Shown here: piece by piece, positions 25,823-59,439 of the stretch | Numbering within the stretch: the first letter of the stretch is position 1 | Layout: every line of letters starts with the position of its first letter | DNA from: Marinicella sp. | GTDB taxonomy: Bacteria > Pseudomonadota > Gammaproteobacteria > Xanthomonadales > Marinicellaceae | NCBI GenBank assembly: GCA_965230295.1 | Contig: OZ246001.1 | Coordinates: 1,312,001 to 1,376,000, forward strand | Direction: 5' to 3' | DNA length: 64,000 nucleotides | The notes under the pieces: model-generated | What the model saw: only the letters and a program-made list of their open reading frames with translations | Told to the model about the DNA's origin: nothing | The model's database searches: none | Program-made: the position numbers and the translations under genes

Positions 25823-25855
25823 AAAAAAAGCCTGTGAAGCAACGCTTCACAGGCT
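25823..25855 (-). terminator. Intrinsic terminator of the ElpS-like gene
   Basis: agcctgtgaagc-aac-gcttcacaggct perfect stem followed by a T-run on the minus strand. Confidence 0.85.
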
Positions 25856-25892: not shown

Positions 25893-27641
25893 TCAATCTA
25901 AAAATTCAGTCCAGCCATTGGTCCATGCATTGGCTTGTGATTTGAATGCACCGGCATAATTGGTCTTGTCAAAGAAAGCACCAAATTTAGTACCGTCCAT
26001 AGGCTCAACACTTGGTGTACCAGCTGTTGGGTAGATGCCATTCAAAGCAGGATCAGCCACTTGGTTACCCATTTGTGCTTCGAAGAAAGACTGAACCGTA
26101 AAGGCATCACCGTCTTCTTCTTCAAAGTTCAAAGCACAGCTGATGATGGTGTTTTCCATGGTGGCCGTGCCGGTTAATGAACCAGGTGTTCCGGCTGCAG
26201 CAAATGTGGCGCTTGAATCCAAATCCAAACATTTTTCAAAACCAGTCACAATCACATTGGTCATGTTAAAACCCGTACCGCGACGTAACACCATTCCTGT
26301 GGTGGTTTTGTTGTCAGAAGGTCCGCCAATGAAAGTCGCATTGGCAATGCTGGGTTGTGATCGTGGCGTGGCATCGTTGTTGTCTTCGAAGTTATCCGCT
26401 TCGATACCGCGCTCTTTGTCATTGGCTGCATTGGGGTCTTGTTTCACCACCAAGTACTGAACGCTGCCATTCCAACCGTGGGTCCAATCCAAAGAATCAT
26501 CTTTGATGCCGGTCAAAACCAAATGCTTGGCATTCACAGTACCGCCGAAGAATTCGATGCCGTCATCTTCGTTGGCGTGTACTTGTACATGATCAACCAC
26601 AGTACCAGAACCAACCGCTTGGAAAGCAATGCCATTCAACTCATCTTCGTCGTTGATTCTGAAACCACCGAACTGAACACGAACGTATTTCAACACACCA
26701 CTGGAATCATCAGGAATGTTACCACCGAAGTTACCTGAACCACCTTCACCAATGTCTTCACATTGCTCGAATGGCACTGAATCATCACAGATGTTGATCG
26801 GCGCTTGGCCATTGATCACCAAACCACCCCAATTACCTGCACCGGCAGACGGGTCATTGGCAGTGAAAGGACCAGTGAATACAACTGGTGCATTGACTGT
26901 ACCTTCAGCAAAGATTTTAGAACCTCGTTGTACAGCCAAGAAATCGTTACCTGTAACACCCAATACCCGAGTACCTGGCTCCACAGTCAAGTTTGCTGTC
27001 GTACCGCCATCTTCACCAACAAAAACACCACCTTGCAAGACCCAGTTGGTGTCGTTGGTCAATGTCACATCACCCGTCAAAGTACCAGAAATCGCACACG
27101 TTTTATCTTGGGCCGTTGCAGTAGCAAAAGCAGGACAACCTGTGAATTCTGTTTGGTATGGACAGACTGAAGAATCACGCAATGTACCAGCGATTTCATC
27201 AAAAGGTACCAAATCAAAACTGGTGGAAGTGTCTGAGATGAATTGACTGCTGATACCCGTTATGTTGGCGCTGATGCTGGTACAGCTTTTGACATCAAAA
27301 GTCATAGAACCGAATGCGCTCACGGTTCTGTTTTGCACCTCAGTGAATGAACCGTCAGTCACTTCAAACAGTTGAAATTCCAAAACTGATTGACCGGCAA
27401 CCACAGGTGCATTACCTGCAACCCATGTGGGTGTACCGTCATCACCATAAATAAAACCTGTGGTGAACATCAATCCGGCTTCAGGACCCGTTTTTACATA
27501 GTCCAATTGCCAACCTGTACCATTGTCTTCTGCACCACGGTACCAGTTACCTTCGAACAAACCATCTACATTGATGGCAGCAGCCGTACCTGAAACCATT
27601 AAACCGCCCAAAACAGCGGACTTTAATTTACCCAATTTCAT
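25893..27641 (-). CDS. Secreted acidic beta-helix protein, ElpS-like, with extra N-terminal domain
   Basis: Sec signal; LTVEPGT, GSKIFAEGT, WGGLVING, DSSGVLKYVRVQFGG, ELNG, VGSGTVVDHVQVH, DDGIEFFGG, DDSLDW, GIEADN. Confidence 0.75.
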   Translation of the reverse strand: MKLGKLKSAVLGGLMVSGTAAAINVDGLFEGNWYRGAEDNGTGWQLDYVKTGPEAGLMFTTGFIYGDDGTPTWVAGNAPVVAGQSVLEFQLFEVTDGSFTEVQNRTVSAFGSMTFDVKSCTSISANITGISSQFISDTSTSFDLVPFDEIAGTLRDSSVCPYQTEFTGCPAFATATAQDKTCAISGTLTGDVTLTNDTNWVLQGGVFVGEDGGTTANLTVEPGTRVLGVTGNDFLAVQRGSKIFAEGTVNAPVVFTGPFTANDPSAGAGNWGGLVINGQAPINICDDSVPFEQCEDIGEGGSGNFGGNIPDDSSGVLKYVRVQFGGFRINDEDELNGIAFQAVGSGTVVDHVQVHANEDDGIEFFGGTVNAKHLVLTGIKDDSLDWTHGWNGSVQYLVVKQDPNAANDKERGIEADNFEDNNDATPRSQPSIANATFIGGPSDNKTTTGMVLRRGTGFNMTNVIVTGFEKCLDLDSSATFAAAGTPGSLTGTATMENTIISCALNFEEEDGDAFTVQSFFEAQMGNQVADPALNGIYPTAGTPSVEPMDGTKFGAFFDKTNYAGAFKSQANAWTNGWTEFLD

Positions 27642-27676
27642 CTAAATTACCTCTGATAAGAATTCAAAAAACCGAA

Positions 27677-27732
27677 ATTCTACGCCCGGGTTGTTTCAGT
27701 TGAGTGACTGTAAGATGAAGTTTTTGTTACAA
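27677..27732 (-). promoter_or_regulatory. Pho box (four 11-bp units) plus -10 element
   Basis: Minus strand reads TTGTAAC aaaa ACTTCAT ctta CAGTCAC tcaa CTGAAAC, 10 nt, TAGAAT. Confidence 0.75.
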
Positions 27733-27782
27733 GGCCAGATTCACTCCTTATATATATGGCAATAAAAAAAAATATGTCGCAA

Positions 27783-27816
27783 AGGTAACAATACTGTCAC
27801 ATTAGGGCCCTAAAAT
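27783..27816 (+). promoter_or_regulatory. Pho box (two units) plus -10 element
   Basis: AGGTAAC aata CTGTCAC, 10 nt (attagggccc), TAAAAT. Confidence 0.7.
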
Positions 27817-27847
27817 TTGCCGCATCTTAAATTTCAAAAGAAATATC

Positions 27848-28633
27848 ATGTCGCGCATACTTAAACTGAATTCAGCTTTACAGTGGGTCAAATGGTCACT
27901 CATTATTGGTGGCTCAGCCGTAACTTTACCCGTGTTGGCACAACAAAACACCGAAGAGATTGTCAACAACCTGATCCAACTCAGGGGTCAAGTGGAAGAC
28001 TTGCAAGCAGAGATGCAAATTCTTAAGGCTGAACACACCCAGTCCATGTCTTATCTGAACACCAGAAAGACAGAGTTGGAAGCCAACATCGACCGCAAAC
28101 AACTGCAAATCAAACAAGCCCAAGCCGAAGTGGTGGATTTACAGGAAAAGATTAAAAACTTAGGCCTGGACTCAGAACAAATGATTCCTGCAGTCATGGC
28201 ATTGGCCAACGGCATCAAGCAAGGCATTGAAACAGGCATTCCATTTAAATACAAAGAAAGATCAAGTGTCATTGATGACATCAGTCGCGATCTGCAAGGC
28301 CGCAAAATCACTTCACAACATGCGATCAACCGTTTGTGGGCCTTCTTGGAAGATGAAATGCGTCTGGCCAGAGAAAATGCCATCTATTCACAAACCATCA
28401 ACTTAAACGGTGAAGATGTGTTGGTGGATGTGGCCAAATTAGGGACGGTGTTGATGTACTTCAAAACCAGAGACGACCGTTATGGACAAGCCGTCAACAA
28501 CAACGGTTGGTCCTTCAAATTATTGGATGACGAATCAGAAAGCCAGGCAGTGGCCACATTGTTTGACTCTTTGAAAAAACAAATCAGACAAGGCCTTTTC
28601 ACATTGCCTTTGAACCTCAACCAAAAAGGATAA
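27848..28633 (+). CDS. DUF3450 / TtpB-like coiled-coil periplasmic protein
   Basis: Signal peptide, coiled coil, IPFKYKER, AKLGTVLMYF; first gene of TonB operon. Confidence 0.8.
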   Translation: MSRILKLNSALQWVKWSLIIGGSAVTLPVLAQQNTEEIVNNLIQLRGQVEDLQAEMQILKAEHTQSMSYLNTRKTELEANIDRKQLQIKQAQAEVVDLQEKIKNLGLDSEQMIPAVMALANGIKQGIETGIPFKYKERSSVIDDISRDLQGRKITSQHAINRLWAFLEDEMRLARENAIYSQTINLNGEDVLVDVAKLGTVLMYFKTRDDRYGQAVNNNGWSFKLLDDESESQAVATLFDSLKKQIRQGLFTLPLNLNQKG

Positions 28634-28647
28634 TTCAGAGACCCCTC

Positions 28648-30030
28648 ATGAAGAAATTATTGTTAATCGTATGGTTGTTTTCTTGTCAATGCCTGATGGC
28701 CCAAGAAAACACAGCTGCTGTTGCTGAACCGGCTTTACCTGAAGCCGATCCTGCCCAAGCCCAACAGGACTTGTTATTGGCTTATAAAAAGGAATATGCC
28801 TTTTTAACCTCACAAGTGAACAACATCCAAAGTCGCTTGGCTGAATTCAAACAAAATGCAGCGCTGGAAAAGCGTCAAATAGAATCGCAAATCTCTGCAC
28901 TGGAAAATCAATTGTTGAATGCAGAAGCTGTGGCCAACCAGCTTGAAGAAGAAATATTTACCATTCAGCGCAATTCCGAATCAGCCCAAGACAACCAGGG
29001 ACTGATTGAATCCACCATCATTCAAGCGCAATCCACCATGAGTGAATTCGGTTTCACAGGATTTCCGCAAACCGCTGAAGCCGAACCCGGTGATTTGAGC
29101 AAGGTACAAACCCTGGTTAATTTAGCCAATAGCACCATAGCTGAACATGCCAGCATCACCAAACAACCCAGCCAATTTTTCTTGACCGATGGTACATCGG
29201 TTCAAGGTGAAATCCTGAAAGTTGGCAACATCGCTTCTTATGGATACAGCCCCTCCGGATCGGGTGTATTGGCACCGGCGGGTGAAAAACAATTCAAAGT
29301 CTGGCAAGACAGCGACCCCGATGCCGCTGCCGGTATATTCAATGGCCAAAGCAGTGGTTTGCTGCCTATTTTCTTGTATGAATCTTCCATCAAAGCCATC
29401 GAAGAGAAGCAACAAAAAACCGTGGTCAGTGTGATCAACTCAGGTGGCTTGATTGCCTGGATCATCGCCGGACTCGGCGCATTTGCTTTGTTGTTGATCA
29501 TCATGCGGGTGTTCTTTTTGAACCGGGCATCGGCCAGTACCGAAAAGTTGCTTGGCGGGGTGGTACAAAAAATTGAACAGCGTGACGTAGAAAGTGCGAT
29601 TAAATTGGCCCACAAAGAGTCCAGCTCCAGTTCCCGTGTACTGCTTTCTGCTTTGCGTAACATCGACCGTGATCGTGATCACATCGAAGACATTGTGTCT
29701 GAATCTATATTGCATGAATCGGGCCAGTTGAACCGTTTTGGCTCCTTGATCATAGTGATTGCAACCGTGGCTCCGTTACTGGGGCTGCTCGGTACAGTCA
29801 CCGGCATGATCTCTACTTTTGACATCATCACTGAATTTGGTACCGGCGATCCCAAGCTGCTTTCCAGTGGTATTTCTATCGCCTTGGTAACCACTGAAGT
29901 CGGTCTGGCCGTGGCCATCCCGGCATTGTTGTTTGGCAACATCCTATCCGGTTGGGCTGAACGCATCAAGGACGACATGGAAAAAGCCGCCCTGCGTGCC
30001 ATCAACGTGTATAAAAAAGTGTTTGCATAA
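28648..30030 (+). CDS. TtpC-like long MotA/TolQ/ExbB protein
   Basis: Signal peptide, large periplasmic region, APLLGLLGTVTGMISTF, GDPKLLSSGISIALVTTEVGL. Confidence 0.9.
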   Translation: MKKLLLIVWLFSCQCLMAQENTAAVAEPALPEADPAQAQQDLLLAYKKEYAFLTSQVNNIQSRLAEFKQNAALEKRQIESQISALENQLLNAEAVANQLEEEIFTIQRNSESAQDNQGLIESTIIQAQSTMSEFGFTGFPQTAEAEPGDLSKVQTLVNLANSTIAEHASITKQPSQFFLTDGTSVQGEILKVGNIASYGYSPSGSGVLAPAGEKQFKVWQDSDPDAAAGIFNGQSSGLLPIFLYESSIKAIEEKQQKTVVSVINSGGLIAWIIAGLGAFALLLIIMRVFFLNRASASTEKLLGGVVQKIEQRDVESAIKLAHKESSSSSRVLLSALRNIDRDRDHIEDIVSESILHESGQLNRFGSLIIVIATVAPLLGLLGTVTGMISTFDIITEFGTGDPKLLSSGISIALVTTEVGLAVAIPALLFGNILSGWAERIKDDMEKAALRAINVYKKVFA

Positions 30031-30043
30031 CCCTGGTTTGTGA

Positions 30044-30652
30044 ATGATGAGTGATTTGATTCAACAACTACAAGGGTATTTCATCTCAGGTGGCTATGTG
30101 ATGCCACCTTTGATCATCGCCACCTTGGTACTTTGGTGGACCTTGGGTTACCGCATGATGGCTCTGCGCCGTGGCTCTGTGCGAAGCACTCGGGTGATGG
30201 TTTATCGTTACATGAAAGGACAGCTGCCCAGCAACCAAGGTGTCTTGGTGCGGGTGCTTAACAAAGGCATGAAACTGCGTGCCAAAGCTTTGCCCAACTT
30301 GCGGCGCTATTTAGATGATGCCTTTGCTGAAGAATCCAACGAAATCAGGAAATACAAAGTCCTGATCACCACCATTGTATTGGTGGCTCCATTGCTGGGT
30401 TTGTTAGGTACAGTGTCTGGCATGATAGAAACCTTCGACTCTTTGGGAGACATGTCCTTGTTCTCGCAATCAGGAGGTATTGCCGGCGGAATTTCTCAGG
30501 CACTGATCACCACCCAAATGGGTTTGGCTGTGTCCATCCCGGGTTTGATCGTGAATGGCATTCTAGACAAAAAACAAAAGCAACTGGAAATTGAAATGGC
30601 ACAGCTCAAAGACTATTTGTGCAGCCCCATTCCAGGCATAGAAACTGACTGA
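30044..30652 (+). CDS. exbB: ExbB proton-channel protein
   Basis: APLLGLLGTVSGMIETF, GGISQALITTQMGL. Confidence 0.9.
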   Translation: MMSDLIQQLQGYFISGGYVMPPLIIATLVLWWTLGYRMMALRRGSVRSTRVMVYRYMKGQLPSNQGVLVRVLNKGMKLRAKALPNLRRYLDDAFAEESNEIRKYKVLITTIVLVAPLLGLLGTVSGMIETFDSLGDMSLFSQSGGIAGGISQALITTQMGLAVSIPGLIVNGILDKKQKQLEIEMAQLKDYLCSPIPGIETD

Positions 30653-30677
30653 TTGAAGCAGTCACAGAGAACCAATT

Positions 30678-31088
30678 ATGAGATACAGAGAAAGTAAAGA
30701 AACCGTCCAAGATTTGAACATATCACCGTTGATTGACATGGTGTTCATTTTGCTGATTTTTTTCATGGTGAGTACCACTTTTGTCAAGGACATGAAATTG
30801 GATCTGGAAAGACCAGCGGCATCCAGTTCCAGCACGGCTTCAACCAAAGCCGTTCGGTTGTACATCGACAATGCCGGTGAAGTTTATCTGGATGGAGAAA
30901 GCATTCGTGCTTGGGTGATTCAATCCCGACTCAGAGATTTATTGAAAACCAAAACACAGAAATCTGTGTTGGTGGTGACTGATGAAAACGTGCCTTCGGG
31001 CAAATTAGTAGAAGTGGTGGATCAAGCCCGTCTGGCCGGGGCGTCAGATGTGGGTGTGGCCACAGAAAAAGAAGTAGGAGCAGGCTGA
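30678..31088 (+). CDS. exbD: ExbD
   Basis: LNISPLIDMVFILLIFFMVSTTF. Confidence 0.94.
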   Translation: MRYRESKETVQDLNISPLIDMVFILLIFFMVSTTFVKDMKLDLERPAASSSSTASTKAVRLYIDNAGEVYLDGESIRAWVIQSRLRDLLKTKTQKSVLVVTDENVPSGKLVEVVDQARLAGASDVGVATEKEVGAG

Positions 31089-31732
31089 TGAAAAAATTAG
31101 AAAGAACCAAAAGAAATTTGGCTGCCTTCGGTTCCATGGTGTTTGGCACCGTGTTGGTTTTGGGTACTTTGATTTTGATCAATGACTCAGACAACCTGAT
31201 GGACCAAGCCAAAGGTGTTGAGGGCTCAAACATCAAAATTCAAAAACAAAAGCCCAAAGCACAACAAGAAATCAAACGGCCCAAGCCAAAACCAAAGCCC
31301 AAAAAGTCGCGACCAGCACCACCGACACCCTTACTGGGTTTAAACAGTTCTTTGGGCGGTTTGGATTTGGGCTTACCTGATTTTTCAATGGATGGATTGA
31401 ATGGCTTGGATGGCGACATTTTAGGCAATGGCAGTGGCGTGATCATGACCGATGACACCGTTGACCAATCACCCAAAGCAGTTTGGCAAGCACCGATGGT
31501 GTATCCACCCCGAGCGCGCGCCAAAGGCATTGAAGGCTATGTGGTCTTTTCATTGTTGATTGGTATCACTGGTGAAATTGAACAAGTCAAAATCGTTGAA
31601 TCTTACCCTGATGGTGTGTTTGATGAAGTGGCCATGCAAGGCATCAATGGTTGGCGTTTTGAGCCGGCCCAGTACCAAGGCCAGTCCGTTAAATCATGGG
31701 CCAAACAACGCATTCGATTCGATTTGAGTTAA
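31088..31732 (+). CDS. tonB: TonB energy transducer
   Basis: N-terminal TM, PKPKPKPK linker, YPPRARAKGIEGYV, WRFEPA. Confidence 0.93.
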   Translation: MKKLERTKRNLAAFGSMVFGTVLVLGTLILINDSDNLMDQAKGVEGSNIKIQKQKPKAQQEIKRPKPKPKPKKSRPAPPTPLLGLNSSLGGLDLGLPDFSMDGLNGLDGDILGNGSGVIMTDDTVDQSPKAVWQAPMVYPPRARAKGIEGYVVFSLLIGITGEIEQVKIVESYPDGVFDEVAMQGINGWRFEPAQYQGQSVKSWAKQRIRFDLS

Positions 31733-31754
31733 CCGCATTCTATTTGAGAAAATC

Positions 31755-32897
31755 ATGAAAAAGATGTGCTTGCTGGCTTTGATGGTGTGTACCACACCTC
31801 TGGTCTTGGCAGAAGAAAATACCGATGAAGTCAATTTTCTGGAATTGGCTTCTTTGATGTTGAAAGACAATAATTTAGATCGAGCTGAATCGGCCTTGGG
31901 ACAGGTGGATCAAGCCGCTGAAGATTTTGATGCGCAAAGATTTCAAGTGCTCACAGGCCTACTACACGTGAGGAAAGGTGCTCACCAAACAGCCATTGAT
32001 GCCTTTTTGGCTGCTAAAAATTTGGGTGAAGTGGATGCTGTGATCAATGTATATTTAGCCCAATCAGCATTCAGCCTTGAACAGTATCAATTAACTTTAG
32101 ATGCTTTGAACAGTGCCGGTGAGGCGGTGGCGAAAATCCCATCGGTTTATCACATGCGCGGCCAGGCCCATTGGCTACTTAAACAACACAACATGGCCAT
32201 GGCTGTGATGGATCAAGCCAGTTTGATCTTTCCTGATGACGCTTCATTTCAGCGCCGCAAAATATTTTACTTGATCGAACTGGGGTTGAATTCTACGGCA
32301 GCTGAGCTGGGATTGAAATACCTGGAACAACACCAAGCCGATGCCAGTGATTATGTCGGTATTGGTAATGCCCTCCGAGTCTCAGGCAACTTGATCCTGG
32401 CCTTGCGGTTTTTGGAACAAGCCAAATTGAAGTTCCCTCATAACACTGACATCATTAAAGCGTTGGCGGCTACCTACATCAGCAATCAGTCTTACCACTC
32501 AGCGGCCCAATTGGTGCACCAATTGGCCCTGACTGAACCAGCCTTGCTCAGTGAAGCCGCTGAACTGTACCGCCGAGCAGGTCAACGACACATGGCTTTG
32601 ACTTTGAACAGTTTGGTTGAAAATCAAGAAGATAAGATGAAACAACGGTTGGGTTTATTGATTGAATTAGCCAATTACGATCAAGCTGCAAGCATGGAAC
32701 AGGACATCAAACGCACCCGCATAGACAGTGATGAAAACATCCAGTATGCCATGGCCTATGCTTTGTTCAAAGTCGGTGAATATGACCGCGCAGAACACTA
32801 CCTGTCTCGCATCACCGATACTCAATTGTTCCAAAAAGCCGCAGAAGTCAGAAAAATCATGGCTGATTGCGAAACCGAACATTGGCGTTGTCAGTGA
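31755..32897 (+). CDS. TPR-repeat periplasmic protein (TtpD-like)
   Basis: Signal peptide; helical repeats such as YAMAYALFKVGEYDRAEHYL. Confidence 0.8.
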   Translation: MKKMCLLALMVCTTPLVLAEENTDEVNFLELASLMLKDNNLDRAESALGQVDQAAEDFDAQRFQVLTGLLHVRKGAHQTAIDAFLAAKNLGEVDAVINVYLAQSAFSLEQYQLTLDALNSAGEAVAKIPSVYHMRGQAHWLLKQHNMAMAVMDQASLIFPDDASFQRRKIFYLIELGLNSTAAELGLKYLEQHQADASDYVGIGNALRVSGNLILALRFLEQAKLKFPHNTDIIKALAATYISNQSYHSAAQLVHQLALTEPALLSEAAELYRRAGQRHMALTLNSLVENQEDKMKQRLGLLIELANYDQAASMEQDIKRTRIDSDENIQYAMAYALFKVGEYDRAEHYLSRITDTQLFQKAAEVRKIMADCETEHWRCQ

Positions 32898-32940
32898 CCA
32901 CCTAACCAATTCATAAAACAGCTAAAAAACCGTCAACCTT

Positions 32941-35900
32941 ATGAACAGAATGAAGAATAAATGGGTCCTTGCCATCAGTTTGCTGATGACCACCTGGGCA
33001 GCACTGGCTGAAGACGCCACCATTAACATCTATGTGTTTCTTAAAGGCAGCCCATTGAGCCAAATTGACATCTATACCGATGATCAGTTGTTGGGCAGCA
33101 CCGACGCCAGTGGGTTGGCCAAAGTCTTGGTTGCTGCTGGCGATAAATCCCTGGTATTTAAAAATGGTTCGGAAACATTGTATGAGTACCCAGTTATCCT
33201 CTTGCCAAACGAACTGTTGCAGTTGCTGGTGGATTTCAAAATTGCTGGAGATCCCAGCCCTTTGGTTGATGTTGAAAGCTCCGTGGACAAATCCGCAGTC
33301 ACCACTGTTGCTACCGAAACTGCTGTTGATACGCCCATCGTTCCTATCATTGGGGTGATCACAGATGCAGAAAACCAGCGTCCAATAGTCGGTGCCAAGG
33401 TGTATATTTCGGGACGCTCGGAACATTTGGTGACCGATGCCGATGGTCGTTTCAGTACCGAAGTGAATGCTGGGTCTTATAACATCAGTGTGCTTCATGC
33501 TCAGTTCAACAGTCAAATCAAAAATAACCTCGATATCTCCAATCCGGATGCCAATGAAGTCAATATCGAATTGACCCCTGCCGGCGCAGAATTACCCGAG
33601 TTTGTGGTGGTTGAGCCCTTCATTGAAGGTTCCCTGGCTTCGGTGCTGGAAGAGCGCCGAGCGAATAATTCTGTGGCCAACTATTTGAGCATGGAACAAA
33701 TCAGCAAATCCGGTGATTCAGATGCAGCAGGGGCATTGAAGCGGGTGACTGGCTTAACCTTGGTTGACGGTAAATTCATCTTTATTCGTGGCTTGGGTGA
33801 ACGCTACTCAAGTACCTTGCTCAATGGGGCCAATTTACCGAGCCCAGACCCCACCCGTCGGGTCGTACCATTGGATTTATTCCCGACCAGCATCATTGAA
33901 TCGATTGAAGTACAAAAAGGTTATGCGGCCCATTTACCGGCAGAGTTTGGTGGCGGATCGGTGGTATTGAGAACCATCAACGTGCCAGATGAAAATTTCT
34001 TGAATGTTGGCATCTCTTATGGTCATAACAGTCAAACCACCGGTAAAAAGGGACTGAAATACAACGGCGGTGGAAGTGATTGGACCGGATTTGATGACGG
34101 TTCCAGGGCCTTACCCAGGGTCTTGGCTGATGCCATTGCTGGTGACACCGAACTGCGCCCCAATAATCCGTTTTTTGATGGTGGGTTCTCACCTGAAGAA
34201 TTGGAATTGTTTGGAGAGTCTTTGAACACCAATTACGACCTGCGTTTTGCTGACATCGATCCAGGAATGGGGTTTGATGCTGCCGGCGGCATGCGCTTTG
34301 ATCTAGATTCAGGAATGGCACTGGGTTTCTCCGCGGCACTTGAATATGGCAATGATTTTCAAACCCGTTCGGAACTCAGGCGCAGCTACAACATTTCAAG
34401 TGGTAGCGAATTGGGGTTGGAAAGTGAAGAGGTTTCAACCACCACAACCCGAGGCATCAATGCCAGCGGGTTTTTGACCACTGGGATAGAGTTTAATGAC
34501 TTACACCAACTTTCTGCCAATTACATGTTATTGCGCAGCACCCAGGACTTTTCTGAACAAGCCGAAGGGTTCAATGAAGATTTGGGTAACTCCAGGCGCA
34601 TTTCGGAATTACGCTGGTCAGAACGAGACCTGGCTTCTTTGCAAGTATTTGGTGAGCACAGCTACCCGGTCTTCAATGACTTACAACTGAAATGGCAATA
34701 CACCGATTCAGAAGCCACGTTTGACGAACCCGATAACCGGATTTATCGGTACGACCAACGTGATGAAGGGGATTTTGTATTCTCAACCAGAAATGACAGC
34801 AACTCTCGGGTGTTCAGAGAGCTGATCGATGAAAGTCGCAACATCCGTCATGATTGGTCACTGCCCATCACCTTTGGTAATCACCATGACTTTTTGTTTC
34901 AGTTTGGACAGAACTGGGTTAAAAAAGAACGCAATTCTGACATCAGACGCTTCGTTTTTGAAGATGTTGGACCCTTGGCCAATCAAGTCGATCGTACAGA
35001 TCCATTGAGTGGTATTTTGAACCCGGATTTTATCGACCCCACTGGTTACCAGTTAATTGAAGTGACACGATCGACCGATAACTATTTTGCCAATCTAGAC
35101 ATCAAAGGCACCTATTACGGTATTGATTATGCCTACAAAGAAAATCTGAGGTTCACATTGGGTGCACGGCACGAAACTTTTGATCAATCAGTGACCACTT
35201 TCCGATTGTTTGATCCTGACCAAAGTCCCATCACTGCCAGCCTGGCCGATGACGATTGGTTCCCAGCCTTCTCATCAACCTGGATCATGAACGATTCGCA
35301 CCAATTCCGCTTTAACTTCTCGGAAACAGCAACCAGGCCAGACTTCAAAGAATTGTCGCCTGCACAGTTCAAAGACCCCGTTTTGAACCGAAATGTGATT
35401 GGAAACCCGGATTTGGTGGTCGGTAAAATCACCCATTATGATTTGCGCTGGGACAAGTATTTTTCTCCTGGTGAGTTTGTTTCATTGAGCCTGTTTTACA
35501 AAGAATTTGAAAACCCCATTGAGGTGGCGATTTTCCCGGGCACATCAAACATCATCAGTTTTCAAAATGCCTTGGCTGCAGAAAACACTGGAATTGAGCT
35601 CGAAGTGTATAAAGATTTCTCGTTCTTCGGAGATCGTTTTGCCAACTTTTATGTCAGTGCCAATTACGCATACATCGATTCTGAAATTCAATTGAATACA
35701 GACGGTCCTTCTGGTCAAACCAACAACACCCGACCCTTGCAAGGCCAGTCTCCTTATGTGGCGAATGTGCAGTTGGGTTATGACAACAAAGACCGCGGCA
35801 TCAGCGCCTCTCTGTTGTTCAACAAATTTGGAGAACGGATTTCTGAAGCCGGCACCAGTGGACGGCCAGATATCTACGAACAACCTTTCAATCAAGTGGA

Positions 35901-36060
35901 TTTTGTTTATTCACATGCTTTTGCAAGGCGATGGAAAATCAGCTTCAAAGCGCAAAACCTGCTTGATGATGAAGTGGTTTTTCTGCAAGGTGAAGAAATT
36001 ACCCGCACCTTTACCCGCGGCAGAAGCTTCAGTTTAGGCATTTCTTTTGATGTTTTCTGA
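32941..36060 (+). CDS. TonB-dependent receptor with N-terminal carboxypeptidase-regulatory-like extensions
   Basis: Plug DSDAAGALKRVTGL, FIRGLGERYS, VPLDLFP; RPLQGQSPY; AQNLLD; C-terminal Phe. Confidence 0.95.
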   Translation: MNRMKNKWVLAISLLMTTWAALAEDATINIYVFLKGSPLSQIDIYTDDQLLGSTDASGLAKVLVAAGDKSLVFKNGSETLYEYPVILLPNELLQLLVDFKIAGDPSPLVDVESSVDKSAVTTVATETAVDTPIVPIIGVITDAENQRPIVGAKVYISGRSEHLVTDADGRFSTEVNAGSYNISVLHAQFNSQIKNNLDISNPDANEVNIELTPAGAELPEFVVVEPFIEGSLASVLEERRANNSVANYLSMEQISKSGDSDAAGALKRVTGLTLVDGKFIFIRGLGERYSSTLLNGANLPSPDPTRRVVPLDLFPTSIIESIEVQKGYAAHLPAEFGGGSVVLRTINVPDENFLNVGISYGHNSQTTGKKGLKYNGGGSDWTGFDDGSRALPRVLADAIAGDTELRPNNPFFDGGFSPEELELFGESLNTNYDLRFADIDPGMGFDAAGGMRFDLDSGMALGFSAALEYGNDFQTRSELRRSYNISSGSELGLESEEVSTTTTRGINASGFLTTGIEFNDLHQLSANYMLLRSTQDFSEQAEGFNEDLGNSRRISELRWSERDLASLQVFGEHSYPVFNDLQLKWQYTDSEATFDEPDNRIYRYDQRDEGDFVFSTRNDSNSRVFRELIDESRNIRHDWSLPITFGNHHDFLFQFGQNWVKKERNSDIRRFVFEDVGPLANQVDRTDPLSGILNPDFIDPTGYQLIEVTRSTDNYFANLDIKGTYYGIDYAYKENLRFTLGARHETFDQSVTTFRLFDPDQSPITASLADDDWFPAFSSTWIMNDSHQFRFNFSETATRPDFKELSPAQFKDPVLNRNVIGNPDLVVGKITHYDLRWDKYFSPGEFVSLSLFYKEFENPIEVAIFPGTSNIISFQNALAAENTGIELEVYKDFSFFGDRFANFYVSANYAYIDSEIQLNTDGPSGQTNNTRPLQGQSPYVANVQLGYDNKDRGISASLLFNKFGERISEAGTSGRPDIYEQPFNQVDFVYSHAFARRWKISFKAQNLLDDEVVFLQGEEITRTFTRGRSFSLGISFDVF

Positions 36061-54339: not shown

Positions 54340-56235
54340 ATGGAACCTACCGGTTGGGTCAAAGACGTTTACGATTGGATTCAAGCCAACCCCAACTGGA
54401 CAGGTATCCTGATATTTCTGTTTGCCTTCACTGAATCTATCTTACTGGTCGGCATCGTTTTTCCAGGTGCTGCATTTTTGGTCAGCCTCGGTGCTTTGAT
54501 TGGTCTGGGTATTTTGGACTTTTACACCGCCTGGATCTGGGCTTCCATGGGCGGGTTTGTGGGCGACGGGATCAGCTTTTGGATCGGTCATAAATACAAG
54601 CAACGCTTGTTAAAAATGTGGCCAATTTACAAATTTCCCGATTTAATAGCCAAAGGCCAAGACTTTTTTAGGAAATACGGTGGTATCAGTGTTTTTATCG
54701 GCCGTTTTGTAGGTCCGGTCAGGCCCATCATCCCGGCAATTGGCGGCATGATGGGGATGGGCGTTAAACGATACATCATCATCAGCGCGGTGGCTTCCAT
54801 CTTATGGGCACCCTTCTACTTACTACCAGGCATGTTGTTTGGATCGGCCATGGAAACCATGGCCAAAGTGGCTGTGAAAATGTCCGTCCTGGTGGTGGTC
54901 TTGGTGGTACTGGTTTGGGTCGCCTACTGGGTCATCAATATCTTCTATCAGCTGTTGATGCCAAGAACCTATCGCTGGTTAAGTAATTTATTGGCCTGGA
55001 CCCAAAGGCACCCCACTCTAGGGAAATTAACTTCAGGGTTGGTCGATCCCAGACAACCGGAAAAAGGCTCACTGGCGATGTTGGCGGTGCTGTTACTGGC
55101 CTTCTTGGTGGCTGCCATATGGTTTGCTGCGATCAACGACACCTTGGTGCGCTGGAACCAAAGTACGGAATCCTTCTTTTATGCATTCCATAATCCATGG
55201 ACCGTCCTGCCGATGAAATGGTTGTTGTTCCTGGGTCATGACCTGAGTGTGTTACTCATCACTTTAACGGTCGCCCTGTGGTTTTTATACCGCCGCATGA
55301 CTCTGGTGTTGAACCATTGGTTACTGCTGTCGCTGACTGCCTATGTCTTCTCTGTGCTGATCAGCAAGGCAGGACATGAAGAATGGCAGTTCTTGGCTTC
55401 TCATCATGTTTTCTGGTTCACCGCAGTGTCTTGTTTTTGGGCCATTTTGGTGGCAGGTGCCTATCCAATAAAATTCCGCAGCTGGCCTTATGTACTGTCT
55501 GGTGTGTTGATATTACTCCATGCTTTTGCCACCTTGTTTTTCTATCAAATGAACCTGACGATGGTGGTGCTGTCGATCCTGTCAGGCAGCATTTGGTCCA
55601 TGTTGATCGGTATCGCATTTCGCACCCGGAATCGCAAACAATTCCTCGGACTGCCGGTTAAAATCACCTTCATCACAACGGCCATGTTGGCGCCATTGGT
55701 GACCTGGGTCTTTTTTTCCAGTTCCACCGAGGTCACCAAACCTGCCTGGCTACTAGAACAATCCAGTGAAAAAACCACCGGATGGGCCAACACCGGTGAA
55801 CAAGAATTGGACATCACCCTGGTGGCCGAGTTGCCTGTGCTCGAGCAACAATTGAAGGCCACAGGCTGGCAATCCATTCAGCCCAGAACCTGGGGCAATG
55901 TTTACCAAGCACTGCGGGTTGAACCGGAAGCAGCCGAACTGCCATTATTTTCATACGTTCACAGGGGTGAGGTGGAACAGCTGTTGATGAGTAAAACCAC
56001 GGACGATGAATTGATCGCCTTGCGAGTTTGGCATGAACAAACTGCAGCTGATGATCAGTTCAAAGGCACCCTAACCAGACACCTGCGGGACACTGATCTG
56101 TATTTATTTAACCACTGGGGTTTTAAAAATAATGTCAGCGATAAATCCAGCCTCACTGAATCATTGAAAAACAGCCATTTCATCATCGACTTCATGGCAG
56201 ATGATTCTCTGTTAATCAGGCAAAAAAGAAAATGA
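54340..56235 (+). CDS. DedA/VTT protein with degenerate PAP2-like and LssY-C-like regions
   Basis: AFTES..GIVFPG, GDGISFWIG, FIGRFVGPVRP; multi-TM middle; soluble C-terminus. Confidence 0.85.
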   Translation: MEPTGWVKDVYDWIQANPNWTGILIFLFAFTESILLVGIVFPGAAFLVSLGALIGLGILDFYTAWIWASMGGFVGDGISFWIGHKYKQRLLKMWPIYKFPDLIAKGQDFFRKYGGISVFIGRFVGPVRPIIPAIGGMMGMGVKRYIIISAVASILWAPFYLLPGMLFGSAMETMAKVAVKMSVLVVVLVVLVWVAYWVINIFYQLLMPRTYRWLSNLLAWTQRHPTLGKLTSGLVDPRQPEKGSLAMLAVLLLAFLVAAIWFAAINDTLVRWNQSTESFFYAFHNPWTVLPMKWLLFLGHDLSVLLITLTVALWFLYRRMTLVLNHWLLLSLTAYVFSVLISKAGHEEWQFLASHHVFWFTAVSCFWAILVAGAYPIKFRSWPYVLSGVLILLHAFATLFFYQMNLTMVVLSILSGSIWSMLIGIAFRTRNRKQFLGLPVKITFITTAMLAPLVTWVFFSSSTEVTKPAWLLEQSSEKTTGWANTGEQELDITLVAELPVLEQQLKATGWQSIQPRTWGNVYQALRVEPEAAELPLFSYVHRGEVEQLLMSKTTDDELIALRVWHEQTAADDQFKGTLTRHLRDTDLYLFNHWGFKNNVSDKSSLTESLKNSHFIIDFMADDSLLIRQKRK

Positions 56236-57710
56236 AACTGTTGCTATCCATCCTAATTCTGGCTGCCGCCTCTGTGGCAGTGATTTATACGTTCAGAACA
56301 CCAGCGCCTGAAGTGTTTCATGCTGATTTTGTCGGCAGTGAAGTCTGTGGCGACTGCCATTGGATCAATTATGATGCCTGGAAAAAATCACCACACCACA
56401 ACATTGCGAGGTTACCTGCAAGTGATTCAGTTGTGGGTGATTTCTCAGATGGTGATTACTATTTCCCGCAACAGGATTTAGAAGATGAGAATGAATTGCC
56501 AGCAGCAAAAATGTACCAGCGTGCCGGGGAGTTCTTTATGGCCCTTCGCGACATAGGCACTGACAGTTATTCTGAATTTAAAATAGCCAAAGTGATAGGT
56601 TATCAATACCGACAAACCTATTTAACACAAGAAGAAGGTGGTGTGCTTAGGCGGCTGCCAATCCAATGGTCTGTACCACGTCAGGACTTTTTTGCTTATT
56701 GGAATGAACAAGAACAATCACCACAATCTGTGCATGATTTATGGGAGCAAATGAAGCCCCTGAACTCAGCCTGGAATTTATATTGTGCCAGGTGCCATAC
56801 CACCAACTTACAGGAATACAGCAAAGATCAGGCACACACCCAAGCCAATGTAGAGTGGACAGAAATTGGTGTGGGTTGTGAAGTTTGCCATGGCCCAGGC
56901 AGCAAACATGTGGACTACATGAATGGACACCCCATCAACCGCTTGGCATCATGGTTCGACCAAAACCTGTTTCAAAAGACAGCCCCTTTTATCATCAATG
57001 CCGCCAACCAACAACAAGGCTTTGCCTTGAGTGTGTGTGCCCGTTGCCACGGGGCAGACATATTCCGCAAAAGACAACCTTTGTACCGCAACTACAAACC
57101 AGGGTTTGATGCCAACGGCAACCTCAATGATTTGTCCCCCTATTTTACCGAAGCACCCCTGGAACCTGGCAGAACCTTCCCAACCATCGAGGTCTGGGAA
57201 GACGGCCGACCCAAAGGGCTGGGAACCTTGTTTCGGTCTTTTGCTGATTCCAGCCACTACCAAGCCACTGACATGCGCTGTTATACTTGCCACGACCCGC
57301 ACAACAACAAAAAACCGGCATCTACAGGACTGTTAAGACCAACTTCACAGAGCAATGAGTTTTGTATGAGTTGCCATGCACCAATTGCTGAAAATCCAGA
57401 CGCACATACAAAACACAAAGCGGGCAGTAAAGGCTCCTATTGCTATGATTGTCATATGCCCAAAAACATACTCAATCAAGTCGCCGGCGTGCCGCATTTT
57501 GTTCGCAGCCACAACATGGGATCAATCCCTAATCCCTTGTTATCAAAACGGATGGGCACCTCAAAGTCACCCAATGCCTGCCTTGAATGCCATCAAGACC
57601 AAAGCAACGATTGGGCCATCAATCATTTGCGTGATTGGGGCATGGATAAACACCTGATAGAAACAGATTTACACCTGCAGCGCAACGCCACTTCCGATAC
57701 GGTCCACTGA
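56232..57710 (+). CDS. Multiheme c-type cytochrome (8 CxxCH)
   Basis: CGDCH, CARCH, CEVCH, CARCH, CYTCH, CMSCH, CYDCH, CLECH; N-terminal anchor. Confidence 0.9.
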   Translation: MKLLLSILILAAASVAVIYTFRTPAPEVFHADFVGSEVCGDCHWINYDAWKKSPHHNIARLPASDSVVGDFSDGDYYFPQQDLEDENELPAAKMYQRAGEFFMALRDIGTDSYSEFKIAKVIGYQYRQTYLTQEEGGVLRRLPIQWSVPRQDFFAYWNEQEQSPQSVHDLWEQMKPLNSAWNLYCARCHTTNLQEYSKDQAHTQANVEWTEIGVGCEVCHGPGSKHVDYMNGHPINRLASWFDQNLFQKTAPFIINAANQQQGFALSVCARCHGADIFRKRQPLYRNYKPGFDANGNLNDLSPYFTEAPLEPGRTFPTIEVWEDGRPKGLGTLFRSFADSSHYQATDMRCYTCHDPHNNKKPASTGLLRPTSQSNEFCMSCHAPIAENPDAHTKHKAGSKGSYCYDCHMPKNILNQVAGVPHFVRSHNMGSIPNPLLSKRMGTSKSPNACLECHQDQSNDWAINHLRDWGMDKHLIETDLHLQRNATSDTVH

Positions 57711-58584: not shown

Positions 58585-59439
58585 ATGGTTAGACTCAGAA
58601 TCGGCGGCGTGCCTGAACATTACAACATACCCTGGCACATGGCACGAAAATCAGGGGCCTTACAAGCAGCTGGCATCAAACCGGAATGGACCGACTTTTA
58701 CGAAGGTACCGGCGGTATGATCCAAGCCATCAAGAATGATGAACTTGATGTGGCCATACTGCTGACTGAAGGGGCCATTTCAGGCATATCGAGAAGCGCC
58801 AATTATAAAATTGTGTCTTTTTACACCGATTCACCGATCATCTGGGGCATCCATGTTCCGGCAGAATCTGACATCACCGATGTCAACGAAATCTACCACC
58901 ACCGCTATGCCATCAGCCGTTATGGCTCTGGCTCACACCTGATGCCTTACGTCCATGCCAGACAAAAAAATTGGCCGGTTCATAAACTACAATTCAGGGT
59001 CATTAACAATTTAGATGGCGCCAGAATGGCTTTTCGCGAAGACCAGGCCGATGTGTTTTTCTGGGAAAAGTTCACCACCAAGCCGTACGTTGATAATGGC
59101 GAGTTCAGACGCATTGGCGAATGCCCAACACCATGGTCTTGTTTTGTGGTGGTGGCCAGCCACCAGACCTTAACGTTACATGCTGACAAAGTAAAAGCCT
59201 TGCTTGAGGAAACCTTCAAGCAAGCCCAAAACTTATACAACGATCCTGATCGTGTGGACATCATCTCAAAGCAATTTGATTTACTGCCTGAAGACGTCGA
59301 AGAATGGTTATCATACACCCGATGGGGCCGAAAAATTGAACTGAAAAAGGATGTGTTGGTCGAAACCACTGACACATTGAAAGATTTGGGGCTGGTGTAT
59401 CAAAAATTCGACCCTAAAAATTTATACCATGAATTTTAA
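58585..59439 (+). CDS. Type 2 periplasmic-binding-fold protein (NMT1/SsuA-like), no signal peptide
   Basis: GGVPEHYNIPW, GTGGM, LTEG, ISRYGSGSHLM, FFWEKFTTKP, TPWSCF. Confidence 0.8.
   Translation: MVRLRIGGVPEHYNIPWHMARKSGALQAAGIKPEWTDFYEGTGGMIQAIKNDELDVAILLTEGAISGISRSANYKIVSFYTDSPIIWGIHVPAESDITDVNEIYHHRYAISRYGSGSHLMPYVHARQKNWPVHKLQFRVINNLDGARMAFREDQADVFFWEKFTTKPYVDNGEFRRIGECPTPWSCFVVVASHQTLTLHADKVKALLEETFKQAQNLYNDPDRVDIISKQFDLLPEDVEEWLSYTRWGRKIELKKDVLVETTDTLKDLGLVYQKFDPKNLYHEF

Follow-up and report, generated by a model that had tools for sequence, protein, structure and literature searches.

An ElpS-type beta-helix protein, a TonB-dependent receptor and a complete Ton motor under apparent PhoB promoters: a candidate phosphorus-scavenging system in Marinicella

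Introduction

What is a complete TonB import system doing behind repeats that resemble Pho boxes, back to back with a secreted acidic protein? The question is raised by a locus at positions 25893-36060 of a 64,000-nucleotide stretch of DNA from Marinicella sp. (contig OZ246001.1, positions 1,312,001 to 1,376,000), here called the window; the genome, of 4.0 Mb, is in one contig. A gene for a beta-helix protein of the ElpS type reads leftward from a divergent intergenic region, and seven genes, from a DUF3450 protein to a TonB-dependent receptor, read rightward from it. An earlier note on this DNA had proposed that the locus is a Pho-controlled TonB system for scavenging phosphorus. This proposal is supported by the match of the boxes to those of the genome's own phosphate genes, by conservation, and by phosphorus genes near the helix-receptor pair in 14 of 26 loci elsewhere. 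It appears from the sequence that the locus is probably a PhoB-activated, self-energised outer-membrane system for phosphorus scavenging, with phosphorus compounds as its candidate cargo.

Phosphorus limits growth across large ocean areas. To our knowledge, the passage of phosphorus compounds through the bacterial outer membrane is understood mainly for porins, and ElpS, a protein that phosphate starvation induces, has remained an orphan since 2010, with no activity that we know of. By uniting an ElpS-type protein, a receptor and a full TonB2/TonB3-type motor under apparent PhoB promoters, the locus becomes a testable candidate for energised phosphorus uptake. The pair also adjoins phoBR/pstS-like genes in the culturable genera Alteromonas and Rheinheimera.

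Gene content and order

The leftward gene (25893-27641, minus strand) encodes a secreted acidic protein of 582 residues assigned to the ElpS type and to PF28492 (Beta_helix_4) from its open reading frame (ORF), translation and structural model. The rightward row, all on the plus strand, starts with a TtpB-like DUF3450 protein with a signal-peptide-like start (27848-28633; PF11932, 106 bits). It continues with a long TtpC-like MotA/ExbB protein of 460 residues (28648-30030; C-terminal PF01618 at residues 327-445), ExbB (30044-30652; PF01618, 88 bits), ExbD (30678-31088; PF02472, 101.5 bits), TonB (31088-31732; PF03544, 72.7 bits) and a TtpD-like TPR protein, again with a signal-peptide-like start (31755-32897; TPR families). 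The row ends with a TonB-dependent receptor of 1039 residues (32941-36060; CarboxypepD_reg, plug and barrel domains). ORFs and domain matches thus confirm the gene content and order that the earlier note had described. The gaps within the row range from an overlap to 43 nt, and a single operon is therefore likely.

The motor genes follow the order ttpB(DUF3450)-ttpC-exbB-exbD-tonB-ttpD(TPR). There are six ExbD/TolR copies in the genome, that at 30678-31088 included, but one DUF3450/TtpC/TPR (TtpB/TtpC/TtpD) set, which is complete and occurs at this locus only. As a result, the motor looks private to the receptor, and the description of the Ton system as dedicated and self-contained holds, all six parts being present.

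The divergent promoter region

The two promoters share an intergenic region of 206 bp (27642-27847). Pho boxes are built from direct 7-bp repeats with an 11-bp period, as described in PMC4971064. On the plus strand, a two-unit box, GGTAACAatacTGTCACA (27784-27801), consists of GGTAACA (27784-27790) and TGTCACA (27795-27801), 11 bp apart, and is followed after 9 nt by the putative -10 hexamer of the Ton operon, TAAAAT (27811-27816). On the minus strand, an array of four units with the same period, TGTAACA, CTTCATC, AGTCACT and TGAAACA (27692-27731), lies upstream of the beta-helix gene, and its last 7-mer is again 9 nt from a putative -10 hexamer, TAGAAT (27677-27682). The unit cores of this leftward array are degenerate (GTAAC, TTCAT, GTCAC and GAAAC). 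Counted from the GTCAC core on the plus strand or the GAAAC core on the minus strand, the gap is 10 nt. The earlier description of 11-bp repeats on both strands, each 10 nt before TAGAAT or TAAAAT, is therefore borne out. Both promoters have at least two direct 7-bp repeats, the 11-bp period and a box in place of the -35 element. No sigma-70 match at 9 of 12 positions was reported for either of them.

Such an arrangement is rarely reached by chance. Dinucleotide shuffles of the region reproduced the plus-strand box with its -10 geometry once in 5000 trials and the four-unit minus-strand array in none of 5000. A genome-wide ranking was made with a weight matrix built from seven half-sites in three promoters (pstS, phoB and porin) of the same genome, and it required a 9-nt gap and TANNNT after the units. 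Each promoter of the locus ranks fourth among 1918 upstream regions, the plus one for two units (matrix score 13.9) and the minus one for four units. In both lists pstS and the porin stand ahead of the locus promoters, and these two lead by construction, their half-sites having gone into the matrix. The weight-matrix scan that the earlier note had called for is thus in favour of its reading, and both divergent promoters can be read as PhoB-dependent.

The absence of a Fur box, also claimed earlier, stands as well: the best match in the intergenic region is 11/19, which is background level, 6187 positions of the genome scoring at least 12/19.

The phosphate genes of the same genome

The genome has a gene row phoR-pstS-pstC-pstA-pstB-phoU, with a Porin_5 gene divergent from phoR and a PhoR protein that carries PF11808. 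The candidate phoB gene scores 285.4 bits, and the next paralogue 202.3. In the pstS promoter, the units TGTTACA-TGTCATA-TGTAACA are spaced at 11 bp and followed after 9 nt by TACAAT, and TGTCATA-type pairs lie upstream of the porin and phoB genes. In their units, their period and their distance from the -10 hexamer, the arrays of the locus match these boxes.

Other strong matrix matches precede a PAP2 phosphatase, an extracellular nuclease-like protein, a choice-of-anchor I protein and another receptor. The first three are further candidate Pho-regulon genes outside the window: a nuclease-like exoprotein with LTD, Big_5 and Exo_endo_phos domains (G000:C1:1071968-1075462; box plus TAAAAT), the choice-of-anchor I protein (1860919-1862472) and the PAP2 phosphatase (2048006-2048521). 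The second receptor (769538-772072, within G000:C1:766374-772310, also outside the window) has a TGTCATCaaatTGTCATG pair 221 nt upstream with a score of 14.5. ExbB- and ExbD-like genes lie directly downstream of it, and they may represent another Pho-linked Ton cluster.

Conservation in Marinicellaceae and the order

The nearest named relatives of the proteins of the window come from Marinicella and Marinicellaceae. Of 41 related genomes, 32 encode the helix protein (E<=1e-20). The co-occurrence of the eight genes, a check named in the earlier note, is plain within the family: 13 of 16 Marinicellaceae loci have the layout of the window, and the other three are interrupted by contig ends. Conservation of the arrays was assessed in 15 intergenic regions (the window and 14 loci) with 500 shuffles each. 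The minus four-unit array with its -10 hexamer was reached by no shuffle in any of the 15, and the plus box is significant in 13 of them, L023 and L025 failing the strict geometry. In a 13-sequence alignment, the columns of the units are 0.86-0.87 identical and those of the -10 hexamers 0.86 (minus, TAGAAT) and 0.95 (plus, TAAAAT). The corresponding values are 0.60-0.67 for the 4-nt spacers, 0.48-0.71 between box and -10, and 0.57 for the middle of the region. Units that are kept while spacers drift are the pattern of a protein-binding site, here seen in the sequences of genomes that are kin.

In the rest of the order, the eight genes are collinear on one strand in 9 of 13 loci, with the helix gene directly after the receptor; three have the receptor and helix gene only, and one has the helix gene alone. 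Several of these GC-rich loci, L053 and L058 among them, have what look like 11-bp arrays upstream of DUF3450, 9 nt before TAGNNT. Across the order, as counted from the table of matches, a match at E<=1e-92 spans the helix domain in 98 of 151 genomes.

Spread of the helix-receptor pair

Is the association with phosphate a peculiarity of one family? A scan with the motif DDG[IVF]E[FWM]FG, one genome per species, gave 66 distinct loci, which range from Nitrosomonas, Alteromonas, Rheinheimera and Kordiimonas to Poribacteria, Acidobacteria, Planctomycetota and Bacteroidota. A receptor homologue is present in 55 of the 66, almost always adjoining the helix gene on the same strand. Among these 55 loci the pair stands alone in 31, is accompanied by a DUF3450 or TPR Ton set in 14 (Pfam shows further sets of the Alteromonadaceae type), and continues into gspD, E and F in 10, all of which are alphaproteobacterial or from unclassified Pseudomonadota. 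In 26 of 39 loci, among them most of the gammaproteobacterial and several of the alphaproteobacterial ones, the first gene is preceded by an array that resembles a Pho box and is reached by no more than 3 of 300 shuffles.

The gene neighbourhood gives a line of evidence that is independent of the weight matrix. Among 128 flanking ORFs of 26 loci, with a reach of two or three genes, a phosphorus gene lies near the pair in 14 loci: phoB and phoR in six, phoR and a PstS-like gene in two, a PstS-like gene with a 2-oxoglutarate-Fe(II) (2OG-Fe(II)) oxygenase in two, a phosphonate-binding protein in one, PHO4 carriers in two, and an exopolyphosphatase (Ppx) with a metallophosphoesterase in one.

Three of the loci, from Salinimonas, Pseudoalteromonadaceae and Alteromonas (L091, L101 and L089), have one same-strand row from phoR to ExbB, in the order phoR, PstS-like, two-domain helix protein, receptor, DUF3450, TtpC-like and ExbB. 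In these culturable genera the module therefore sits inside a phosphate sensing and uptake locus.

The beta-helix protein and its link to ElpS

The mature helix protein is acidic, with an isoelectric point of 4.05 and 73 Asp plus Glu against 25 Lys plus Arg residues. Its translation begins like a signal peptide, and the first 119 residues contain no cysteine; it therefore has no lipobox and is not a lipoprotein. PF28492 is recorded for it as a precomputed assignment (Atlas cluster score 0.99, with PF28492 in 100% of the members); the local Pfam, which does not include this model, and NCBIfam gave no match, nor was a carbohydrate-active enzyme (CAZyme) family found. The family is large, with 5923 clusters at 50% identity (E<=1e-3), and many members have two to five domains in tandem.

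In an AlphaFold2 model (predicted local distance difference test, pLDDT, 87.9), a beta domain at the N-terminus is followed by a right-handed beta-helix at about residues 180-510. This model supplies the helix-protein part of the structure prediction that the earlier note had suggested, and together with the isoelectric point it upholds the label of an acidic beta-helix protein. With VIA-align, Z values of 17-23.6 to right-handed beta-helix proteins were obtained over 250-320 aligned residues. NosD is at the top (Z 23.6), phage tailspikes, alginate epimerases and polysaccharide lyases are among the others, and no family stands out. Foldseek gave generic beta-helix matches alone (best E 4.8e-4, template modelling score about 0.2), and a sequence search of the PDB gave no match at E<=1. 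The domain, residues 165-582 (25896-27149, minus strand), has rows such as DDGIEFFGG, DDSLDW and E-x-D-N and is the only one of its kind in the genome. Seven columns are invariant in 46 sequences (D359, D360, E363, D381, D382, D385 and E414), which places acidic residues on successive coils of the model.

The N-terminal part, residues 24-160 (27162-27572, minus strand), is modelled as an eight-stranded up-and-down beta-barrel (pLDDT 82.5 when modelled alone). Its best Z of 8.4 is at background level, barrels of the fHbp, TbpB C-lobe and hemophilin types giving Z 6-8. No Pfam family was found for it, and Atlas places it in unnamed clusters of 145-153 residues. A further 23 frames of the genome have the module (E<=1e-3), singly or as tandem copies, at either the N- or the C-terminus, and it looks like a general accessory domain of large secreted proteins. 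Frames that carry it include G000:C1:478072-481641, 1397609-1401391 and 3702267-3704639, and stand-alone proteins of about 145 residues occur in Atlas. Slam (PF04575) had no match in the genome, but the control genomes were unmatched too.

The link to ElpS is made through position and likeness. In Caulobacter crescentus, cc0170 (ElpS) directly precedes the receptor gene cc0171 and the genes gspC-N, and the same layout is reported for Xanthomonas, Sphingomonas alaskensis and Hyphomonas (PMC2996285); the Xanthomonas homologue, XAC0692, belongs to the xcs cluster (PMC7777525). ElpS is reported to be produced under phosphate starvation; the purified protein was without phosphatase activity, and overproduction raised alkaline phosphatase in culture supernatants (PMC2996285). 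Caulobacter PhoB is further reported to control TonB receptors and genes of the type II secretion system, T2SS (PMC11208175).

Two GC-rich genomes of the same order as Marinicella have the equivalent arrangement: a 508-residue lipoprotein with an LSAC lipobox, a Pro/Ala/Thr linker and the helix domain, then an 883-residue receptor, then gspC, D, E, F and G. The nearest named relatives of this lipoprotein are from Xanthomonas phaseoli (92%), Luteimonas, Phenylobacterium (61%) and Hyphomonas (47-48%). The window helix protein is 33% identical to it over 429 residues (E 6e-60), and the window receptor is 34% identical to the T2SS-linked receptor over 798 residues (E 2e-122). Because the T2SS-linked pair holds the published position, both members of the window pair appear to be of the ElpS/CC0171 kind; the tie to CC0170 itself rests on the synteny given in PMC2996285 and PMC7777525. 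The helix protein is also 37% identical over 448 residues to a protein of Phenylobacterium, a member of the Caulobacteraceae (E 3e-72). With 33-37% identity to proteins in the ElpS position or from Caulobacteraceae, the secreted protein does not look unrelated to ElpS, and the earlier name "ElpS-like" can be kept, with the link to CC0170 passing through synteny.

Judged by eye, there is no clear 11-bp array upstream of the ElpS-type gene in L060. At four same-order loci with nothing more than the helix gene, or the helix gene and its receptor (L047, L048, L049 and L054), T2SS genes were not found. A 2OG-Fe(II) oxygenase gene (PF13640) adjoins the helix gene in four loci, both Xanthomonas-like and Alteromonadaceae (L059:10944-11864, L060:8086-9012, L089:7455-8255 and L109:8654-9490). 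It is absent from the window and is a possible fourth partner of the module.

The receptor and its motor

The best model for the receptor is TIGR01782 (TonB-Xanth-Caul), at 224 bits, under the cut-off of 310, and the protein is filed as a TonB-dependent receptor only. Its scores against siderophore and haem receptor models are low (31.9 and 39.4 bits). It carries an extra N-terminal extension at about residues 24-135 (33010-33345, plus strand), which co-occurs with a dedicated Ton set. The extension (the first 130 or so residues) is matched in 20 of 23 loci with such a set (11 of 14 and 9 of 9) and in one of 44 without it (none of 10 T2SS-linked, one of 31 pair-only and none of three same-order loci). 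This distribution points to a role for the extension in coupling the receptor and the private motor. In a complex prediction of TtpD residues 20-380 with residues 24-230 of the receptor, the scores were 0.22, 0.33 and 0.00 against a mark of 0.32.

Other features of the locus and the window

An intrinsic-terminator-like hairpin (25829-25855, minus strand) lies 3' of the beta-helix gene, with a 12-pair stem, seven G-C pairs and a T run. On the other side, thrA, thrB and thrC lie 3' of the receptor gene. Domain annotation of the window genes revealed no phosphate-linked genes elsewhere in the 64 kb, no sugar catabolic or transport genes at the locus, no siderophore genes close to it and no T2SS genes in the window. 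The genome has one GspDEF set, outside the window, and genes resembling PhoX, PhoD and PhoA. A multihaem cytochrome with MtrC/MtrF-like domains (56232-57710, plus strand) and, two genes past it, a Ca3427-like periplasmic binding protein (58585-59439, plus strand) are apparently unrelated to the locus.

A working model and its alternatives

How would the parts act together? On phosphate starvation, phosphorylated PhoB would bind both arrays in place of a -35 element and activate both divergent promoters. The rightward operon would supply a six-part motor of the TonB2/TonB3 type (TtpB, TtpC, ExbB, ExbD, TonB and TtpD) together with one receptor. The leftward gene would supply the acidic ElpS-family protein, which would be exported by Sec and would probably leave the periplasm through the T2SS of the genome. 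Outside the cell, the helix protein may capture or cut a phosphorus-bearing substrate, most likely an anionic polymer or ester, and in doing so it would cooperate with the receptor. The receptor would then draw the products into the periplasm, powered by its dedicated motor, and the PhoX-, PhoD- and PhoA-like phosphatases and PstSCAB would complete the process. Since overproduced ElpS reportedly raises phosphatase activity in supernatants and is itself no phosphatase (PMC2996285), the helix protein is better seen as a helper than as a phosphatase.

Several observations weigh against this model. The best PhoB candidate scores 285.4 bits, below the curated cut-off of 296.2, and about ten other OmpR-type paralogues in the genome could read similar repeats. 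The matrix rests on just seven half-sites from three promoters of one genome, three of the four units on the minus strand score low when taken singly (-0.6, 3.8 and 3.7, next to 7.6 for the first), and several of its top matches precede genes with no connection to phosphorus (subtilase, TetR and GcvT). The related loci are kin, and their counts are not independent. In the wider scan, 13 of 39 loci have no significant array, among them Bacteriovoracaceae, deltaproteobacterial and Planctomycetota loci with a full Ton set, and 12 of 26 have no phosphorus neighbour within the reach of the census. The beta-helix fold is typical of polysaccharide-active enzymes, and anionic phosphate would not be an obvious ligand for an acidic protein. 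In addition, in Caulobacter the cc0171 receptor is reported as constitutive and purified ElpS as lacking phosphatase activity (PMC2996285).

The alternative that survives best keeps the regulation and the parts and changes the cargo. The helix protein, with Ca, Mg or Fe, would capture inorganic phosphorus (orthophosphate, pyrophosphate, polyphosphate, or phosphate in colloidal or mineral-bound form) for active import through the receptor. We regard this as unlikely. In its favour, a PstS-like protein is encoded directly before the helix gene in 4 of the 26 loci, PHO4 carriers are encoded nearby in two loci and the exopolyphosphatase in one, and the invariant acidic stack on successive coils could hold metal ions. 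The reported lack of phosphatase activity in purified ElpS (PMC2996285) fits as well. One protein, P0345, has a partial PstS-like stretch (PF12849) fused to PF28492; however, it spans positions 23-118 of the 267 in the profile and may be an artefact of gene calling. Moreover, porins normally suffice for orthophosphate, and the genome has a porin with a Pho box.

A second alternative would have the system supply a metal cofactor (Fe, Ca or Zn) to the phosphatases of phosphate stress rather than import phosphorus. This would account for the reported effect of overproduced ElpS, itself no phosphatase, on supernatant alkaline phosphatase (PMC2996285). Metal chelates are the classic cargo of TonB receptors, the top fold match, NosD, is a part of copper-enzyme maturation, and the 2OG-Fe(II) oxygenase gene adjoins the module in L059, L060, L089 and L109. 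However, dozens of unrelated beta-helix proteins match as well as NosD does, the promoter region has no Fur box, and the neighbours of the pair are phosphate sensors and carriers, not metal genes. We consider this reading improbable.

A shade less probable still is a pair for the use of polysaccharides as carbon, a beta-helix lyase or hydrolase with its receptor, in which the repeats would serve another OmpR-type regulator or be functionless. The fold agrees with it, alginate epimerases and lyases, pectate lyases and polygalacturonases being matched at Z 19-22, and so do the many OmpR-type paralogues and the 13 loci of 39 that lack significant arrays. Against these stand the unit, period and -10 distance that the repeats share with the boxes of pstS, phoB and the porin in the same genome, the phoBR and pstS-like genes that directly adjoin the pair in other genera, and the lack of sugar catabolic or transport genes at the locus and of a CAZyme family match. 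An iron or siderophore TonB2 system can be set aside as very improbable, for although the gene order is identical to that of the Fur-regulated Vibrio vulnificus TonB2 operon, described in PMC6957404 as needed for siderophore uptake, the best Fur match is background, the receptor scores low against siderophore and haem models, and no siderophore genes lie nearby.

Phosphorus scavenging under PhoB therefore remains the preferred reading of the locus, and from it a wider proposal can be put forward tentatively, with the balance against its holding in full. The ElpS-type helix protein and its receptor could form a widespread, unrecognised outer-membrane route for phosphorus within the Pho regulon of Alpha- and Gammaproteobacteria, Poribacteria, Acidobacteria and Bacteroidota. 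Its cargo may be inorganic or metal-bound, and several lineages would have recruited a private motor of the TonB2/TonB3 type, marked by the receptor extension. If this is true, TtpB-TtpD motors are not iron machines as such, and two orphans, Vibrio TonB3 and ElpS, would share one explanation.

Comparison with known systems

A full-text literature search gave no description of the combined helix-receptor-Ton system under Pho boxes. What is new here is the union of known parts under such boxes, the wide spread of the pair, and its change of partner between loci, a Ton motor in some and the T2SS in others.

With regard to promoters, the Escherichia coli PhoB promoters pstS and phoA have consensus repeats that replace the -35 element and end about 10 nt before the -10 hexamer. 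In comparison, the minus-strand units of the window are degenerate, and the leftward promoter has four of them.

The motor resembles TonB2 and TonB3 of Vibrio vulnificus, whose six genes run ttpB-ttpC-exbB-exbD-tonB-ttpD; TonB2 is regulated by Fur and iron and serves many siderophore receptors, and TonB3 is described as not iron-regulated and with no known cargo (PMC6957404). The likeness extends to six genes in one order, with DUF3450 first, a long TtpC and a TPR protein last. Unlike TonB2, the window locus has Pho boxes, has no Fur box in its intergenic region, and keeps one receptor inside the operon.

A Ton cluster that responds to phosphate is already known in Pseudomonas aeruginosa, where phdA-pdtB-exbB2D2-tonB4 is switched on by phosphate starvation via pho boxes, as given in PMC4971064. 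It differs in having a three-part motor, in its dependence on PhoB together with the extracytoplasmic function (ECF) sigma-VreI, and in its tie to two-partner secretion. DUF3450, TtpC, a TPR protein, a beta-helix protein and an operon receptor, all present at the window locus, are not part of it.

The closest parallel for the pair is ElpS/CC0171 of Caulobacter, with which it shares the homologous helix-receptor type and a link to phosphate starvation. In contrast to the ElpS-type lipoproteins, the window protein is without a lipobox and has an additional N-terminal barrel module; its receptor has a 220-residue N-terminal extension that sets it apart from the CC0171 type, and what adjoins the window pair is a Ton motor, not a set of T2SS genes.

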